This document shows, piece by piece, positions 1-4,485 of a stretch of DNA of 4,485 nucleotides. The notes under the pieces were generated by a model, which had not been told where the DNA came from, ran no database searches, and was given only the letters and a program-made list of their open reading frames with translations. Each line of letters opens with the position of its first letter. The stretch's first letter is position 1. The stretch is from IMG/VR virus record IMGVR_UViG_2563366972_000007. The stretch is one strand, 5' to 3'. The DNA comes from a virus (Duplodnaviria; Heunggongvirae; Uroviricota; Caudoviricetes). The position numbers and the translations under genes were made by a program.

Positions 1-432
1 GTGGGATCATTAACGGATGTCGCCTCCCGCGTCATGCTGTCGTTTGGTGAGTTTGAATTCAGTATTGATACTGCTGCTTATAACGCCATGAAGCGCACGA
101 TGGAATGGCGATGGGATGAACAACAGCTTATCGGAAAAAACGACCTGCTGCAGTATACCGGCAAGGGGGCCAGAACAATAACCCTTGAAGGTATGGCGCA
201 CGCGGGATTTCGTGACGGTGTGGGAATGGATGCCCTTGATACACTGGTTCAGATGGTGGATGACAATCCGGCCCCGCATCTTCTGGTCTCGAGCACAGGT
301 GATGTGATGGGGTATTTCGTGGCAACCGCTTATTCAGATAACACCACGTCCTTTCTTCCCGGCGGTGCGCCGAAGAACAAAACGTTCACACTGGAGCTGA
401 AATACTATGGCGAAAAACTGGCGGACTACTGA
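1..432 (+). CDS. gpU: P2 gpU-like tail protein; 5' end uncertain because the ORF opens with GTG at the window edge and an in-frame ATG at 34 fits the family N-terminus better
   Basis: Seen: ORF in frame +1 ending with TGA at 430..432. From memory: the translation (MLSFGEFEF..WRWDEQQLIGKNDLLQYTGKGARTITLEGM..GYFVATAYSDNTTSFLPGGAPKNKTFTLEL) aligns along its length with P2 gpU (MLALGMFVF..YRWPSNSRIGKRDAFQFLGVGEENITLAGV..GMYVISRVSETGSIFFADGTPRKIDFTLSL). Not verified by search. Confidence 0.8.
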   Translation: MGSLTDVASRVMLSFGEFEFSIDTAAYNAMKRTMEWRWDEQQLIGKNDLLQYTGKGARTITLEGMAHAGFRDGVGMDALDTLVQMVDDNPAPHLLVSSTGDVMGYFVATAYSDNTTSFLPGGAPKNKTFTLELKYYGEKLADY

Positions 433-625
433 CGGCGATATGCTGGATGACATCTGCCAGAGACACTATGGCAGCGCCGGACTTAACCAGTCACTGGCGG
501 CGGTACTGGAGGCCAATCCCGGACTGGCTGACCTTGGTCCGGTCTATCCGGCAGGTGTGGAAATCGTGTTGCCGGACTGGGTGTATGAACCGGAGGAAAA
601 GGAGGCGTTTCAGTTATGGGACTGA
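407..625 (+). CDS. gpX: P2 gpX-like tail protein X (small LysM-like tail protein)
   Basis: Seen: 72-codon ORF with ATG at 407 overlapping the gpU 3' end by 26 nt; GGAG at 393..396 sits 10 nt upstream. From memory: LDDICQRHYG..AVLEANPGLADLGPVYPAGVEIVLPD matches P2 gpX (LDAICVRYYG..TVLAANPGLAELGAVLPHGTAVELPD). Confidence 0.85.
   Translation: MAKNWRTTDGDMLDDICQRHYGSAGLNQSLAAVLEANPGLADLGPVYPAGVEIVLPDWVYEPEEKEAFQLWD
599..605 (+). promoter_or_regulatory. Shine-Dalgarno sequence (AAGGAGG) for the gpD-like gene
   Basis: Seen: AAGGAGG about 10 nt upstream of ATG 616. Confidence 0.5.
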
Positions 626-1716
626 ATGAGTATCAGCCGGATTTCAGCCTGACAGCAGAGGGTGAGGATATCACGAAGGCCATAAAGCGGGGGCTGGCTG
701 AACTGCGTTATACCGATAATGGTGCGGCCACAAAGCGGGCCGATGAACTGATGATAACGCTGTTCAGTGAGAAGATGGCGTTGCCGCCGAAAGGCGCGGT
801 ATTGACGCTGGGGCTGGGATTTAACGGAAATCTGGTGAATAAAGGCAGTTTTACAGTCTGCCAGGTGGCAAGCGGTGGCCCTCCCCGCCGGATAACCATT
901 TATGCCACCGCAGCCCCCATGAATGCGTCAAAACATGGCGCAGACGTGACCGCACTGAAAACCCGCGCGTTCAGCGATATCACACTGGGCGACCTGGTGA
1001 AAACGATCGCCACTGAAAATAATCTGGTGGCGCGGGTCTCACCGGCGCTGGCAAAAATTCGTATCCCGTGGGTGATGCAGTCATCTGAATCGGATGCGTC
1101 CCTGCTGTCCCGGCTTGCAGGTATGTATGGTGCCACCAGTAAACCGACGAACGGCTACTGGTTATTTCTGGAGTATGGCGCATCACAGAGCGCAGGCGGC
1201 AGGGATGCGCCTGTAATGACCATCACACCGGATATGGTATCAGACTGGGATTACCGGGAGGGGGAGCGGCAGGGAGCATCCGGAGGCGGAAAAGGAACAA
1301 CAAAAAAAGGGAAAGTGGGTGTCCGGTATTTTGATACCCGTGACGGACGCACGCGTGAAGTTAAAGTGGATGTGGAGTCCACAGACAAGCGACATCCATT
1401 CACTCAGCCGGATCAGGATACAGCAAAACACTGCGCAGACTCTAAGGTTAAACGTGTGCAGAAAGCCGGACGCCAGATGACGATAACGTTGCCCTGCAGA
1501 CCAGCACTGCTGAAAGCTGGGGCGGAAATGCGTTTTATCACGCAGGGATTTGGGGTACGGGAAGATCATAACTGGCAGGCTGAGTCGGTGGAGTTTTCAC
1601 TGGCACCGGGGCAGGGATTTACGCTGAATCTGTCGCTGGCCACGGATATTTCCGCGAAAGGACAGGCATCAGGGAAGAAGAAAGCGGATAAAAAGGGCGT
1701 GAATTATTTTGGTTAA
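616..1716 (+). CDS. gpD: P2 gpD-like tail protein (late control gene D family; baseplate hub-type protein of contractile tails)
   Basis: Seen: 366-codon ORF with ATG at 616 overlapping the gpX stop by 10 nt, preceded by AAGGAGG at 599..605. Size and position (immediately after U and X) fit the gpD family. The family call rests on synteny and general resemblance, not an explicit alignment. Confidence 0.75.
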   Translation: MGLNEYQPDFSLTAEGEDITKAIKRGLAELRYTDNGAATKRADELMITLFSEKMALPPKGAVLTLGLGFNGNLVNKGSFTVCQVASGGPPRRITIYATAAPMNASKHGADVTALKTRAFSDITLGDLVKTIATENNLVARVSPALAKIRIPWVMQSSESDASLLSRLAGMYGATSKPTNGYWLFLEYGASQSAGGRDAPVMTITPDMVSDWDYREGERQGASGGGKGTTKKGKVGVRYFDTRDGRTREVKVDVESTDKRHPFTQPDQDTAKHCADSKVKRVQKAGRQMTITLPCRPALLKAGAEMRFITQGFGVREDHNWQAESVEFSLAPGQGFTLNLSLATDISAKGQASGKKKADKKGVNYFG

Positions 1717-1729
1717 TGTTTTCTGGATC

Positions 1730-1733
1730 AGGA
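1730..1733 (+). promoter_or_regulatory. Shine-Dalgarno sequence (AGGA) for the tail fibre gene
   Basis: Seen: AGGA 7 nt upstream of ATG 1741 in the 24-nt gap after the gpD stop. Confidence 0.5.
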
Positions 1734-1740
1734 AATAAAA

Positions 1741-3546
1741 ATGTCTGTATTAATTTCTGGTGTGCTGACTGATGGCGCAGGACTCCCCATGTCCGGATAC
1801 CATATTATTCTGAAAGCCCGGCAGAATACATCTGCAGTGGTCATGAGAACGGTGGCTACAGTGGTGACAGGGCCGACGGGAGAATATGCTTTTGAAGCAC
1901 AGACCGGAAGATATGATGTTTATCTTCGGTCGTGTATTGAAAGAGAATATTGTGTCGGTGATATTTCGGTTTACGACGACTCCAGGTCCGGCACGCTGAA
2001 CGACTTTCTGACTGCCCTTGATGAAGGCGATTTAAAGCCGGATGTAGTGAAACGCTTTGAGGAAATGGTGGCGCAGGCGCAGCAGAGCGCGAAAGCGGCA
2101 GCGGAAAGCGAACGACAGGCCTGGCAACATGTCGCTGATGCGCAACAAATTAAGAGCGACTGCGAGACGCTGGCGGATAACGTACAGCAGAACGCAGAAG
2201 CCGTTGCTGAAGATAAAAAGCACGTGGCACAGCTGTCTTCGCAGGTTGAGGATACCGCCGAAGAGGTCAGGCAGGATGCTGAAGCTGCCAGAAAGGCCGC
2301 ATCCGATGCGGAGCAGGCCAGGGATGAGATTGATACCGCATTATCAGCGACACTCAAAACGGCTAACCACCTGTCAGAAATTGCGGCAGAAGGCGAAGAG
2401 GCGCAACAGGAATCCCGCGATAATCTGGGACTGAAAAGCGCCGCTACAATGGAGCCACAGAGTGATATTTATGACCGGACAGAAGGCCGACTGGCGGTTC
2501 CCGGCATGTTCGGATTCGGGAAAATATTTTCCTATGACGACAGGACAGAGTTTGAAACAGAGGCTGATTTTCTACTGTGGGTAAAAAGGGCAAACCCCGG
2601 ACGCTATGCCGTTTATGCACGTACAAATGTGGTAATACAGGGCGTGCTGCTCAGTGGTACTGTTGACATTATCTGGCCAGAATATCAGCACAATCCCAGT
2701 CCGGTATATATACCTAAAATCATTATTTTCTATGGCATTAACGGCCATGTTTATTACAACCGTTACTGGACTGCCAGTGGTGGTTATCTGGTTGGCTGGG
2801 AGAACCTGAAGGTCAACGAGGCTTCACTCAGGGCACTGATTGAAACCCGCGCGCCACTAAACAGCCCGGCACTGACCGGAACGCCGACAGCGCCAACACC
2901 GCCAGATGATGCAGCAGGCACAGAAATAGCTAATGCGGCGTTTGTCCGCAAACTGCTCGCTGCACTGGTGGATTCATCTCCCGAAGCCCTTGACACGCTG
3001 AACGAACTGGCGGCGGCGCTGGGCAATGACCCGAACTTTGCGACAACCGTCACTAACGCGCTGGCGGGTAAACAACCACTCAGTGATGTGTTAACGGCAC
3101 TCAGCAACCTGACACAACGTGCTGACACGCTTCCGTACTTTAACACAGATGAATACGTCTCCCTTGCGCCCCTGTCAGAAAAGGGACGCTCACTGCTGGC
3201 GCAGGAAACGCCGGAAGCCATGCGAACAGTACTGGAGCTGAAAAGCGCCGCCACAATGGAGCCACAGAGTGATATTTATGACCGGACAGAAGGCCGACTG
3301 GCGATACCGGGGACACTTGGTTTTGGGGAAATTTTTCATATTAATGACAGGATTAGCTTTGACACCAGAGCCGAATTTGATACTTGGATAAGAGGCGCAA
3401 AACCGGGGCGTTATCTGGTTTATGCAAACCCCGGCATAGTGATACCAAAAGTGCTATTCAGTGGAATTCTTGAAATTATCTGGGCTTCAGCTTTAACTAC
3501 TACAACTAACGGCGTAAACAAGATTTATTTTTTTTTACAGTGTTAA
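1741..3546 (+). CDS. stf: Side tail fibre protein, lambda Stf-like N-terminal domain, Ala/Glu/Gln-rich coiled-coil shaft, conserved fibre motif, two receptor-binding-type modules; as encoded it stops prematurely at TAA 3544..3546 inside the second module
   Basis: Seen: 601-codon ORF, AGGA at 1730..1733 sits 7 nt before ATG 1741. From memory: the N-terminus (MSVLISGVLTDGAGLPMSGYHIILKARQNTSAVV..ISVYDDSRSGTLNDFLTAL) aligns with lambda Stf (MAVKISGVLKDGTGKPVQNCTIQLKARRNSTTVV..ITVYEDSQPGTLNDFLCAM). The central block APLNSPALTGTPTAP..EALDTLNELAAALGNDPNFATTVTNALAGKQP matches the conserved Stf/fibre motif APLDSPALTGTPTAP..DALNTLNELAAALGNDPDFATTMTNALAGKQP. Confidence 0.85.
   Translation: MSVLISGVLTDGAGLPMSGYHIILKARQNTSAVVMRTVATVVTGPTGEYAFEAQTGRYDVYLRSCIEREYCVGDISVYDDSRSGTLNDFLTALDEGDLKPDVVKRFEEMVAQAQQSAKAAAESERQAWQHVADAQQIKSDCETLADNVQQNAEAVAEDKKHVAQLSSQVEDTAEEVRQDAEAARKAASDAEQARDEIDTALSATLKTANHLSEIAAEGEEAQQESRDNLGLKSAATMEPQSDIYDRTEGRLAVPGMFGFGKIFSYDDRTEFETEADFLLWVKRANPGRYAVYARTNVVIQGVLLSGTVDIIWPEYQHNPSPVYIPKIIIFYGINGHVYYNRYWTASGGYLVGWENLKVNEASLRALIETRAPLNSPALTGTPTAPTPPDDAAGTEIANAAFVRKLLAALVDSSPEALDTLNELAAALGNDPNFATTVTNALAGKQPLSDVLTALSNLTQRADTLPYFNTDEYVSLAPLSEKGRSLLAQETPEAMRTVLELKSAATMEPQSDIYDRTEGRLAIPGTLGFGEIFHINDRISFDTRAEFDTWIRGAKPGRYLVYANPGIVIPKVLFSGILEIIWASALTTTTNGVNKIYFFLQC
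2431..2496 (+). repeat. Direct repeat copy 1 (66 nt) opening the first receptor-binding-type module; encodes LKSAATMEPQSDIYDRTEGRLA
   Basis: Seen: identical to 3238..3303 at 65 of 66 positions (t at 2445 versus c at 3252); sequence diverges sharply from position 67. Confidence 0.9.
3238..3303 (+). repeat. Direct repeat copy 2 (66 nt) opening the second receptor-binding-type module
   Basis: Seen: 65/66 identity to 2431..2496, same reading frame, 807 nt (269 codons) downstream. Confidence 0.9.
3528..3536 (+). other. T9 homopolymer at the frame-change point of the fibre gene (candidate slippage or phase-variation tract, or indel/sequencing error)
   Basis: Seen: nine consecutive T at 3528..3536. 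It lies inside the 29-nt interval (3518..3546) where frames +1 and +2 are both open. Reading the tract as T8 gives ..NKIYFFYSVNGAVYY.., which matches module 1 (KIIIFYGINGHVYY). Confidence 0.8.
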
Positions 3547-3631
3547 TGGTGCGGTTTATTACGCCCGTGGCACTTCTGGTGCCCCGGCATGGGAACTCTG
3601 GAGACGAACAGATAAGGAATTAATTGATTTT

Positions 3632-3922
3632 TTGTCCGGTACAGTTTATTCCGGCGGGCTGAATGCATCACCGGAGGCTGGCGGTATTGTTCAGGCAGCA
3701 TTTCGTTATCAGGATAAGCCCGGAGGATACACCCTGAGGCGAGGTGATGCTTTAAGTGGTTCACTTCTGAAGCCATATATAATTACAGTCGATGAAAGTG
3801 GCGAACAGACTCTTCATATTAAAGAGGAACATACGTTTCCCGGATATTACTGGAGTCTGACCTCCTATCCGTGGCTGAAAACGAGTGATTATATTCTGGG
3901 AATATTTATAAGGTATCGTTAA
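3632..3922 (+). CDS. Distal (C-terminal) part of the tail fibre, displaced into frame +2; not an independent gene
   Basis: Seen: frame +2 is open from 3518 to TAA 3920..3922 with no in-frame ATG (the ORF-track start at 3632 is TTG). Its translation from 3518 (FIFFYSVNGAVYYARGTSGAPAWELW..) is homologous to the continuation of the first fibre module in frame +1 (IIIFYGINGHVYYNRYWTASGGYLVGWENL..), so it is the natural continuation of the fibre past the T9 tract. Confidence 0.7.
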   Translation: MSGTVYSGGLNASPEAGGIVQAAFRYQDKPGGYTLRRGDALSGSLLKPYIITVDESGEQTLHIKEEHTFPGYYWSLTSYPWLKTSDYILGIFIRYR

Positions 3923-4485
3923 TGAACATTACAGATATAAAAAATCCTGTCAGCCTTGAACACGGGGCGATAAATTGCGAAATATTATTTGACGATATGG
4001 AGGAATATGTTCCCTATACCGCGACACCGACAGACAGCGATAAAACGGGGAAGCAGGTATGGCAGGAGCTACAAAGCGGTAAATGGGGTGAAATCGCCCC
4101 GTTCATCGTCACGCCGGAACTTATTTCGGCAGCGAAGAATGCCAAAAAGCGGGAAATTGAGGTGTGGCGTACAGAGCAGGAAGCGCAGCCGTTCACGTTC
4201 GAATGGAACGGTCATACCTGGAATGGTGGTCCTGACTCGATGGCGCGGCTTTATCCGGCAGTAATAGCATCAAAGTCTGACACAGCGCGAAAATCCATGA
4301 TATGGGGTAATGCGGAAAACCAGCAGGTGAAACTGTCTATGCAGAAACTGGATGAACTGCTTACTGCAATGGTTCAGGCACAGGTCGATCGCAATGATGA
4401 GATTTATCAGCGTCAGCGCGAGATGAAAGAAGCGTTAAATTCACTGGAGGATTTGAAGTCGATTAGGGATTTCAGGCTGGAGTAA
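3922..4485 (+). CDS. Putative tail fibre assembly/chaperone protein; family not recognised
   Basis: Seen: 187-codon ORF whose ATG (3922..3924) overlaps the fibre-frame stop TAA (3920..3922) in a TAATG junction, with AAGG at 3910..3913. The position directly after a fibre gene is where Tfa-type chaperones sit. I do not see the canonical Tfa C-terminal motif, so the function is inferred from context only. Confidence 0.45.
   Translation: MNITDIKNPVSLEHGAINCEILFDDMEEYVPYTATPTDSDKTGKQVWQELQSGKWGEIAPFIVTPELISAAKNAKKREIEVWRTEQEAQPFTFEWNGHTWNGGPDSMARLYPAVIASKSDTARKSMIWGNAENQQVKLSMQKLDELLTAMVQAQVDRNDEIYQRQREMKEALNSLEDLKSIRDFRLE

Follow-up and report, generated by a model that had tools for sequence, protein, structure and literature searches.

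The stretch of viral DNA analysed here (the window, 4,485 nucleotides) carries phage tail genes, a side tail fibre gene whose reading frame is interrupted at a run of T, and a gene for a DUF4376 protein. Its features are as follows.

1-432, 407-625 and 616-1716, plus strand: gpU, gpX and gpD-like hub genes (Pfam PF06995, PF05489 and PF05954, respectively).
1741-3922, plus strand: side tail fibre gene, 726 codons after removal of one T; as sequenced, frame +1 at 1741-3546 and frame +2 at 3536-3922.
1741-2139, plus strand: N-terminal anchor domain, residues 1-133 (PF08400, Pfam E-value 4.1e-53).
2140-2430, plus strand: Ala/Glu/Gln-rich stretch up to residue 230, presumed from its composition to be an alpha-helical coiled-coil shaft.
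2431-2496, plus strand: linker repeat copy 1 (LKSAATMEPQSDIYDRTEGRLA), a putative recombination site and the indel junction relative to locus L005.
2431-2814, plus strand: module 1, a predicted internal knob-like alpha/beta domain, residues 231-358.
2497-3303, plus strand: 807-nt (269-codon) unit comprising the remainder of module 1, the block and the second linker copy; absent from L005 and its fibre P0116.
2845-3237, plus strand: conserved Stf-type block, residues 369-499 (APLNSPALTGTPTAP...NELAAALGNDP...LPYF...LSEKGRSLLAQ), assigned by PHROG, PDB and DNA matches.
3238-3607, plus strand: module 2, residues 500-622, a paralogue of module 1, split by the frameshift.
3528-3536, plus strand: run of nine T (T9), with a +1 frameshift leading to a stop at 3544-3546.
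3608-3922, plus strand: C-terminal tip, residues 623-726 (...FPGYYWSLTS...GIFIRYR), and stop codon.
3922-4485, plus strand: DUF4376 gene (Pfam PF14301, phrog_1141), whose start overlaps the fibre stop by 1 nt.

Judged from their sequence, the genes up to position 1716 are the contractile-tail part of a P2/phiP27-type prophage. They are 94-95% identical to counterparts in E. coli prophages, where a PF08400 fibre and then a DUF4376 gene come after the tail genes and close the prophage. The Tfa chaperone family PF02413 (Caudo_TAP) was not matched in the window by Pfam; the gene after the fibre is the DUF4376 gene, whose product is presumed to be a fibre assembly or accessory protein. The fibre open reading frame at 1741-3546 (601 aa) ends just past the T9 run and reading resumes in frame +2 to 3922, and removal of one T yields the 726-aa protein. 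The N-terminus of this protein matches a chain of 94 residues in the solved structure 9e7m that is labelled ‘Tail fiber protein’ (E-value 2e-15), and the presumed shaft gave weak coiled-coil-type matches (ATG14, ZorA and Rad50), all far below the cut-offs. The block matches Stf-type tail-fibre PHROGs (phrog_2631, 7032 and 454; E-values 1e-48 to 1e-44), a solved tail collar fibre in the PDB (9d93) and, at the DNA level, the P1 S and P2 H genes.

The module-block-module layout reported in a preliminary description of this DNA was borne out in all its elements and coordinates, far beyond chance. Specifically, LKSAATMEPQ is present twice in the fibre (residues 231 and 500), and the linker LKxAAxxxxQxDIxDRTxGRLAxPGxFGFG, together with a predicted alpha/beta module of about 100 residues, was found in two copies with HMM E-values of 1e-79 and 8e-72. 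An alignment of the two modules spans 123 residues with a score of 327 and about 53% identity, and their DNA forms a direct repeat (2425-2619 and 3232-3426) with a spacing of 807 nt, i.e. 269 codons. The two linker copies (2431-2496 and 3238-3303) are identical at 65 of 66 nt, including an exact run of 51 nt, and outside the linker the module DNA is 40-77% identical between the copies.

Module 1 might have been an ordinary shaft repeat of Stf, a possibility raised with the original proposal, but profile comparisons showed that it is not and that it is homologous to positions 321-440 of phrog_2636, which lie between the conserved block and the tip. The idea that a distal half-fibre sits at module 1 holds in part: the module is homologous to the knob-like proximal half of the distal region, but it lacks the C-terminal tip of about 105 aa and is therefore incomplete. 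Domain searches returned no Pfam or NCBIfam model for the module or the tip, and the PDB, searched by sequence with the complete protein, a module profile and a profile of module plus tip, gave no match for these domains. The module occurs in only 13 of 50,697 phage records (lambda is absent from these 13) and is carried by no more than 89 of 1.84 billion cluster representatives. Variability within module 1 is concentrated at three places coinciding in part with predicted loops, against a scaffold and a neighbouring first block half that hardly vary; the second half of the block is as variable as the module 1 loops, and the column variability may reflect mosaic recombination instead of selection for binding.

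The order of these domains had been described as unusual, and this was not confirmed. Among the closest homologues, taken as the best 120 of at least 8000 matches, 115 carry internal modules upstream of a conserved block, in the order block-module-module-block-module with the tip detected or not, whereas module-block-module-tip was seen in three sequences (the repaired window protein, P0001 and P0002) and module-tip in one. When 87 distant representatives were scanned, a single module followed by a tip was the commonest arrangement (39), and internal modules were found in about 20. Since most of its closest relatives also have internal knobs, the window fibre is unexceptional within its family, which is poorly described. 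Intact relatives include P0001 (726 aa, 92% identity), P0002 (723 aa, 87%) and P0113 from Citrobacter (739 aa, 62%), and the intact module-block-module-tip cassette also exists in two other phage backbones, at loci L003 (94.6% nucleotide identity) and L007 (97.5%). The L003 cassette is preceded by a baseplate J gene, two unassigned genes and a Caudo_TAP gene, and adjoins uspF/ompN, while the L007 cassette lies after baseplate genes of Mu type and its fibre starts with another N-terminal domain. The module-to-block junction GWENLKVNEASLRALIETRAPL is identical or nearly so in the window, P0004, P0009 and P0029. The exact pattern of the T-tract region was found in none of the viral, genome or metagenome contigs, and a looser pattern retrieved one viral contig, L007; at the sensitivity of megablast, none of 5,426 complete E. 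coli genomes contains the DNA of module 2 plus tip. Literature searches on the Stf insertion motif ‘GAGENS’, phiP27 fibres and Stf domain duplication retrieved no description of such an architecture.

The most informative relative is locus L005 in E. coli (GCA_018428385.1), which carries the same gene exactly minus the 807-nt unit of module 1 and block. By blastn, window positions 816-2496 and 3234-4455 align to adjoining L005 stretches that overlap by 69 nt, and the L005 fibre, P0116, has 457 aa, that is 726 minus 269. Nucleotide identity is 96.6% and 94% on the two sides of the unit, and both loci have the same gpD-like gene, module 2, tip and DUF4376 gene; they differ in the unit itself and at the T tract, where L005 has eight T (T8) and is hence intact. 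Because the breakpoint lies in the linker, whose two copies are near-identical, the unit was gained or lost by homologous recombination, and the event may have been either an insertion in the window or a deletion in L005. Of the earlier proposal that a distal half-fibre had been fused to, or inserted into, a complete fibre, the inserted unit is supported by L005, with its junction in the repeated linker; a complete distal half-fibre is not.

Several known fibres resemble parts of this arrangement. The closest are E. coli prophage fibres of about 1045-1061 aa (WP_000117760.1 of E. coli W and ALP46863.1, tail3 of Rac-SA53), which have the same PF08400 anchor, linker, module family and block, as well as the tip frame FPGxY...LF(I/V)R and a downstream DUF4376 gene. 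These long fibres are arranged as block-module-module-block-module-tip, with a canonical GLVQL...ATPKAVK motif ahead of the first block; the shorter window fibre has neither this motif nor the first block and module A, so that its coiled coil runs directly into a module. Module 1 and its block would form one 269-codon unit, the counterpart of ‘module B plus block 2’ in the long fibres, with about 77% protein and 84% DNA identity (the latter at window 2465-3105 against the E. coli W region), and the window's combination of module 2 and tip is rare by comparison. Lambda Stf and Rac StfR share a homologous N-terminal domain and the block APLxSPALTGTPTAP...NELAAALGNDP...LPYF with the window fibre. 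In Stf-type fibres a single block leads into a distal domain that is unrelated, and the chaperone is Tfa (PF02413), whereas the window, relative to lambda Stf, has a 128-residue module (231-358) between shaft and block and a DUF4376 gene downstream in place of Tfa. The R-type pyocin fibre PA0620 (knob1-knob2-foot; 6cl6, 6cu2) has no sequence similarity to the window fibre, in which, moreover, a long conserved shaft block parts the two knobs. The same module, at 34-50% identity, is found in ‘Tail fiber repeat’ proteins of the lytic coliphages Goslar (1324 aa), a jumbo phage, and Av-05 (545 aa), a 121-kb phage, which represent other phage types and fibre contexts.

At the distal end, the tip is terminal wherever it was detected among homologues, and an alignment headed by the repaired window protein shows a conserved FPGxY...(L/I)F(I/V)R frame around a variable interior. 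In the window, such a tip followed by a DUF4376 gene is likewise present, the tip being reached only after repair of the T9 run. The first 46 or so codons of the DUF4376 gene (3922-4059) co-vary with the tip: loci sharing the tip have an N-terminal part of 100% identity, against 41-46% where the tip is another, the remainder of the gene being 60-99% identical. The tip is exchanged jointly with the 5′ end of the DUF4376 gene, and it is the presumed main specificity domain. The C-terminal region of P0002 (module 2 and tip), a 95% identical stand-in for that of the window, was modelled at low confidence (pLDDT 62). An invertible tip was considered and dropped, as a search for a Mu gix-type site gave no match at up to three mismatches.

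The interruption of the gene can be read from the same relatives. L003, L005 and L007 all have T8 at the tract, and therefore either the window copy is frameshifted or its extra T is a sequencing error. Ribosomal +1 frameshifting at T9 was judged unlikely, as no stop or recognised stimulator was found there. Fibre trimers generally need their C-terminal domains to fold, as seen with T4 gp37, P2 H and lambda Stf and the chaperones of these fibres, and a product truncated at T9 is unlikely to be able to trimerise. Transcriptional slippage on nine T would be a more plausible rescue than ribosomal frameshifting (PMC1088944).

The explanation that we favour, and consider probable as a whole, is that of a modular fibre with an inserted unit. 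The product of 1741-3922 would be a trimeric side tail fibre of a P2/phiP27-type temperate myovirus, assembled from exchangeable parts in the order PF08400 anchor, presumed coiled coil, linker, knob 1, Stf block, linker, knob 2 and tip, with the DUF4376 gene after it. The unit would have been inserted, and could be lost again, by recombination between the near-identical 66-nt linkers. Specificity would most likely reside in a terminal cassette of module 2, tip and DUF4376 N-terminus, while module 1 would act as an internal shaft knob that lengthens the fibre and, since its loops are its variable parts, probably adds secondary, low-affinity contacts with surface polysaccharides. The extra T in module 2 would inactivate the window gene, barring a sequencing error or partial rescue by transcriptional slippage.

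An alternative, which appears doubtful but deserves consideration, is that module 1 has no ligand and a structural role only, serving as a knob on the shaft or a spacer by which the length or flexibility of the fibre is set. Its internal position fits this, among the structures closest to it are fibres that carry globular domains internally (such as T4 gp34 and the R2 pyocin fibre), and the number of units varies from one to three among close relatives in a way that resembles length polymorphism; four proteins, three of them longer than 1000 aa (P0157-P0159), even have no recognised tip after module and block. However, the confinement of variability to three loop-overlapping stretches, on a near-invariant scaffold and first block half, would be unexpected for a pure spacer.

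We regard it as improbable that the fibre is bivalent, with two independent receptor-binding modules of which module 1 still acts when the tip is off at the T tract. Its loops are variable, it is homologous to a domain that normally lies just ahead of the tip in single-module fibres, and intact two- and three-module fibres are kept in many genomes. The R-pyocin fibre, with two knobs and a lectin-like foot, offers a precedent, for the favoured reading as well, in that a review proposes a possible contribution of its Knob2 to binding (PMC11871291). Nevertheless, module 1 lacks the tip, the very part that is swapped together with the DUF4376 N-terminus, and the T9 stop falls inside module 2, leaving a product devoid of the C-terminal domains mentioned above and of the tip that pairs with the DUF4376 protein. 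The T tract shows no hint of being a conserved switch, given T8 in the three close relatives, and the earlier suggestion of an internal module that works with the tip switched off found no support. Similarly speculative, and in our estimate unlikely, is a recombination ‘accordion’ of linker-bounded units (a knob, or a knob and block): internal knobs would be gained, lost and shuffled among temperate coliphage fibres by way of the conserved 66-nt linker, the variable loops of each knob would bind another surface glycan and the number and identity of knobs would tune host range alongside the tip.

That the arrangement is an artefact of wrong assembly across the repeat, or debris without meaning left by rearrangement in a prophage undergoing decay, is barely credible: the window gene is frameshifted, the 51-nt run could mislead an assembler and no identical sequence was found in three contig collections, but the same order is intact in the independent records L003, L007, P0113 and P0003, three independent contigs make an assembly error unlikely, and assembler collapse or duplication is implausible because beyond the linker the modules share only about 53% identity.

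Nothing here amounts to a novel type of system; mosaic fibres in which knobs are stacked are already well known. The analysis does provide an anatomy for a large family of prophage fibres in E. coli whose annotation is poor: an anchor, a coiled coil, one to three linker-bounded knob units, and a tip paired with the DUF4376 N-terminus. The natural one-unit indel between the window and L005 marks safe junctions for the engineering of chimeric fibres, and the pair is a ready-made test of the effect of an internal knob on host range. Some members of the fibre family are mislabelled ‘shikimate transporter’.

The fibre gene of the window adds a new, frameshifted member to a modular family of prophage fibres that is known, widely distributed and poorly described. 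It lies where a contractile-tail gene cluster ends, in the following layout:

1-432: gpU, contractile-tail gene
407-625: gpX, contractile-tail gene
616-1716: gpD-like hub, contractile-tail gene
start at 1741: fibre gene
3922-4485: DUF4376 gene, downstream of the fibre gene

The genes upstream of the fibre share 94-95% identity with E. coli prophages whose tail genes (sheath, tube, tape measure, gpU, gpX and gpD) lead into a PF08400 fibre and a DUF4376 gene where the prophage ends, adjoining ssrA in strain A36; none of the collections searched contained a sequence identical to the window. The N-terminus of the window fibre is PF08400, and its residues 1-200 (1741-2340) also resemble the 'collar spike protein' 7kjk (E 1e-5). 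On a P2/phiP27-type contractile tail this second fibre may sit at either the baseplate or the collar.

Read in frame +1, the fibre ORF (1741-3546, 601 aa) stops just past a run of nine Ts (3528-3536), and an open frame +2 extends from there as far as 3922; deleting one T yields a 726-aa fibre whose repaired junction, KIYFFYSVNGAVYY, aligns with KIIIFYGINGHVYY of module 1. The motif LKSAATMEPQ marks the start of both module 1 (residues 231-358) and module 2 (residues 500-622). These are ~53% identical over a 123-residue alignment, and the corresponding DNA repeat (2425-2619 and 3232-3426) has a spacing of 807 nt, or 269 codons. Between them lies the Stf-type block (residues 369-499), with matches to PHROGs of Stf-type fibres, to the solved structure 9d93 ('tail collar fibers gp4') and to the P1 S and P2 H genes. 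The preliminary description of this layout, including its coordinates and the 726-aa reconstruction, was thus correct, and its interpretation is partly supported.

That interpretation took module 1 for a distal-type module of the receptor-binding kind. Neither the module nor the tip (residues 623-726) matches a Pfam or NCBIfam model, or a solved structure at the sequence level. One PHROG, phrog_2636, is ordered as block (234-279), module (321-440) and tip (426-566); its module part is matched by both window modules and its tip part only by the frame +2 segment. Module 1 is therefore distal in type but represents only half of what an ordinary distal region contains, namely the first, knob half without the tip. 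The module family is also small, being found in 89 of 1.84 billion cluster representatives and in 13 of 50,697 phage records (including Rac-SA53, Goslar, Av-05, SerU-LTIIb and phiP27), lambda not being among the 13 listed. Module 1 is thus no ordinary Stf shaft repeat, the finding that the preliminary description had named as grounds for refuting it.

Modelled by AlphaFold2 from an alignment of 32 module sequences, residues 223-372 reached a mean pLDDT of 81 (~82-96 per ten-residue block in the core) and form a strand, a helix, four more strands and a C-terminal helix, the linker ahead of the module being poorly predicted in this monomer model. Module 2 and the tip were modelled from the homologue P0002, which is 95% identical in this region; the module shows the same order of elements and is followed by a helix and a beta-rich tip, at low confidence (pLDDT 62). 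Structural matches of the module, all with modest scores, include phi812 receptor-binding proteins, phage K gp144, Acinetobacter tailspikes and Pa193 gp47, as well as T4 gp34, phi11 RBP, the R2 pyocin fibre and the Mu fibre. Since scores are modest and aligned target regions are not given, we infer a 'knob-like fibre domain', short of established membership. True homologues were recovered by Foldseek against viral models, in 'tail fiber repeat' proteins of Goslar and Av-05.

The domain order had been considered unusual, but it is typical of the family. HMMs for module, block and tip were used to scan the best 120 homologues, and 115 sequences, the ~1045-aa E. coli W-type fibres, read block-module-module-block-module (tip detected or not), with internal modules upstream of a block. 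Module-block-module-tip was found in three (the repaired window protein, P0001 and P0002), while P0003 carries two blocks along with three modules, P0113 (Citrobacter) reads module-block-module plus tip, and P0116 module-tip. Having a module upstream of a conserved block is therefore the rule among the closest relatives, and the window fibre is a short variant of this theme. Among 87 distant representatives scanned, a lone terminal module-tip is commonest (39); about 20 have internal modules, four of them without a recognised tip after module and block. The deposited phage protein Rac-SA53 tail3 has three module matches.

A locus in E. coli GCA_018428385.1 (L005) bears on how the extra unit arose. 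It aligns to window 816-2496 (96.6%) and 3234-4455 (94%), the two pieces overlap in L005 by 69 nt that form the linker, and its product P0116 has 457 aa, i.e. 726 minus 269. The 807-nt unit, which comprises the remainder of module 1 together with the block and the second linker, is therefore a linker-bounded indel. The linker copies (2431-2496 and 3238-3303) are identical at 65/66 positions, with a 51-nt exact run, between flanks of 40-77%. Exchange by RecA or a phage recombinase needs no more than such a length, so the unit can be lost again. The proposed insertion thus stands as a real indel, which may historically have been a gain or a loss.

Debris or misassembly is argued against by intact copies of the module-block-module-tip cassette, which has moved as a unit between backbones: L003 (94.6% nt identity), adjoining uspF/ompN, and the viral contig L007 (97.5%). 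The cassettes span 1741-4485 (window), 6001-8744 (L003) and 147-2318 (L007), and their upstream contexts are gpU-gpX-gpD in the window, a baseplate J gene and then two unassigned genes and a Caudo_TAP gene in L003, and baseplate genes of Mu gp48 type in L007. In L007 (P0002) the cassette is fused to another PF08400-type N-terminal domain, hence the anchor has been swapped independently of the distal part.

Where the window has T9, L003, L005 and L007 all have T8, so that the window carries a +1 insertion, which cuts the fibre off inside module 2 and removes the tip. The extra T may be a genuine mutation or a sequencing error in a homopolymer, or the tract may be a transcriptional slippage site. 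Runs of nine Ts are prone to slippage in many bacteria (PMC1088944), and partial rescue of the frame is therefore possible. Nothing in the three relatives speaks for a tip-off switch at the tract. By analogy with other fibres, loss of the tip should block trimer folding, which leaves the idea of module 1 as a remaining binder unsupported. The fibre stop and DUF4376 start share one base (TAATG, 3919-3924), which suggests translational coupling that an upstream frameshift would disturb.

Where the locus has another tip (L001, L004, L006), its DNA does not become homologous to the window again until about 4057-4060, within the DUF4376 gene. Its first ~46 residues (3922-4059) are 100% identical in the same-tip loci L003 and L005 and 41-46% identical in other-tip loci, the rest of the protein being 60-99% identical across the compared loci. 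The swapped cassette hence comprises module 2, the tip and the 5′ end of DUF4376, whose product may be an assembly or accessory protein that uses its N-terminus as the tip-specific interface; joint exchange of fibre tips with their assembly proteins is a known pattern. No such partner is exchanged with module 1. In a set of 81 unique orthologous units of module B plus block, the variability of the module is concentrated at residues 290-309, 314-327 and 342-347, overlapping predicted loops; scaffold and linker hardly vary, nor does the first half of the block. This fits a role for module 1 as an auxiliary contact with a ligand, which has also been suggested for Knob2 in the fibres of R-pyocins (PMC11871291). 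Mosaicism could equally lie behind the pattern, since the second half of the block is just as variable.

The long W-type fibres share the junction GWENLKVNEASLRALIETRAPL with the window; their internal module B is 77% identical to module 1, and E. coli W DNA is 84% identical over 2465-3105. Modules A and B are directly stacked without a block between them (e.g. P0004, residues 405-656), so 'knob alone' and 'knob plus block' units both exist; module A has only 26-31% identity to the window modules. Many ~1045-aa fibres of E. coli and Salmonella (P0005, P0008, P0013 and others) are named 'shikimate transporter' at NCBI, evidently a spread annotation error.
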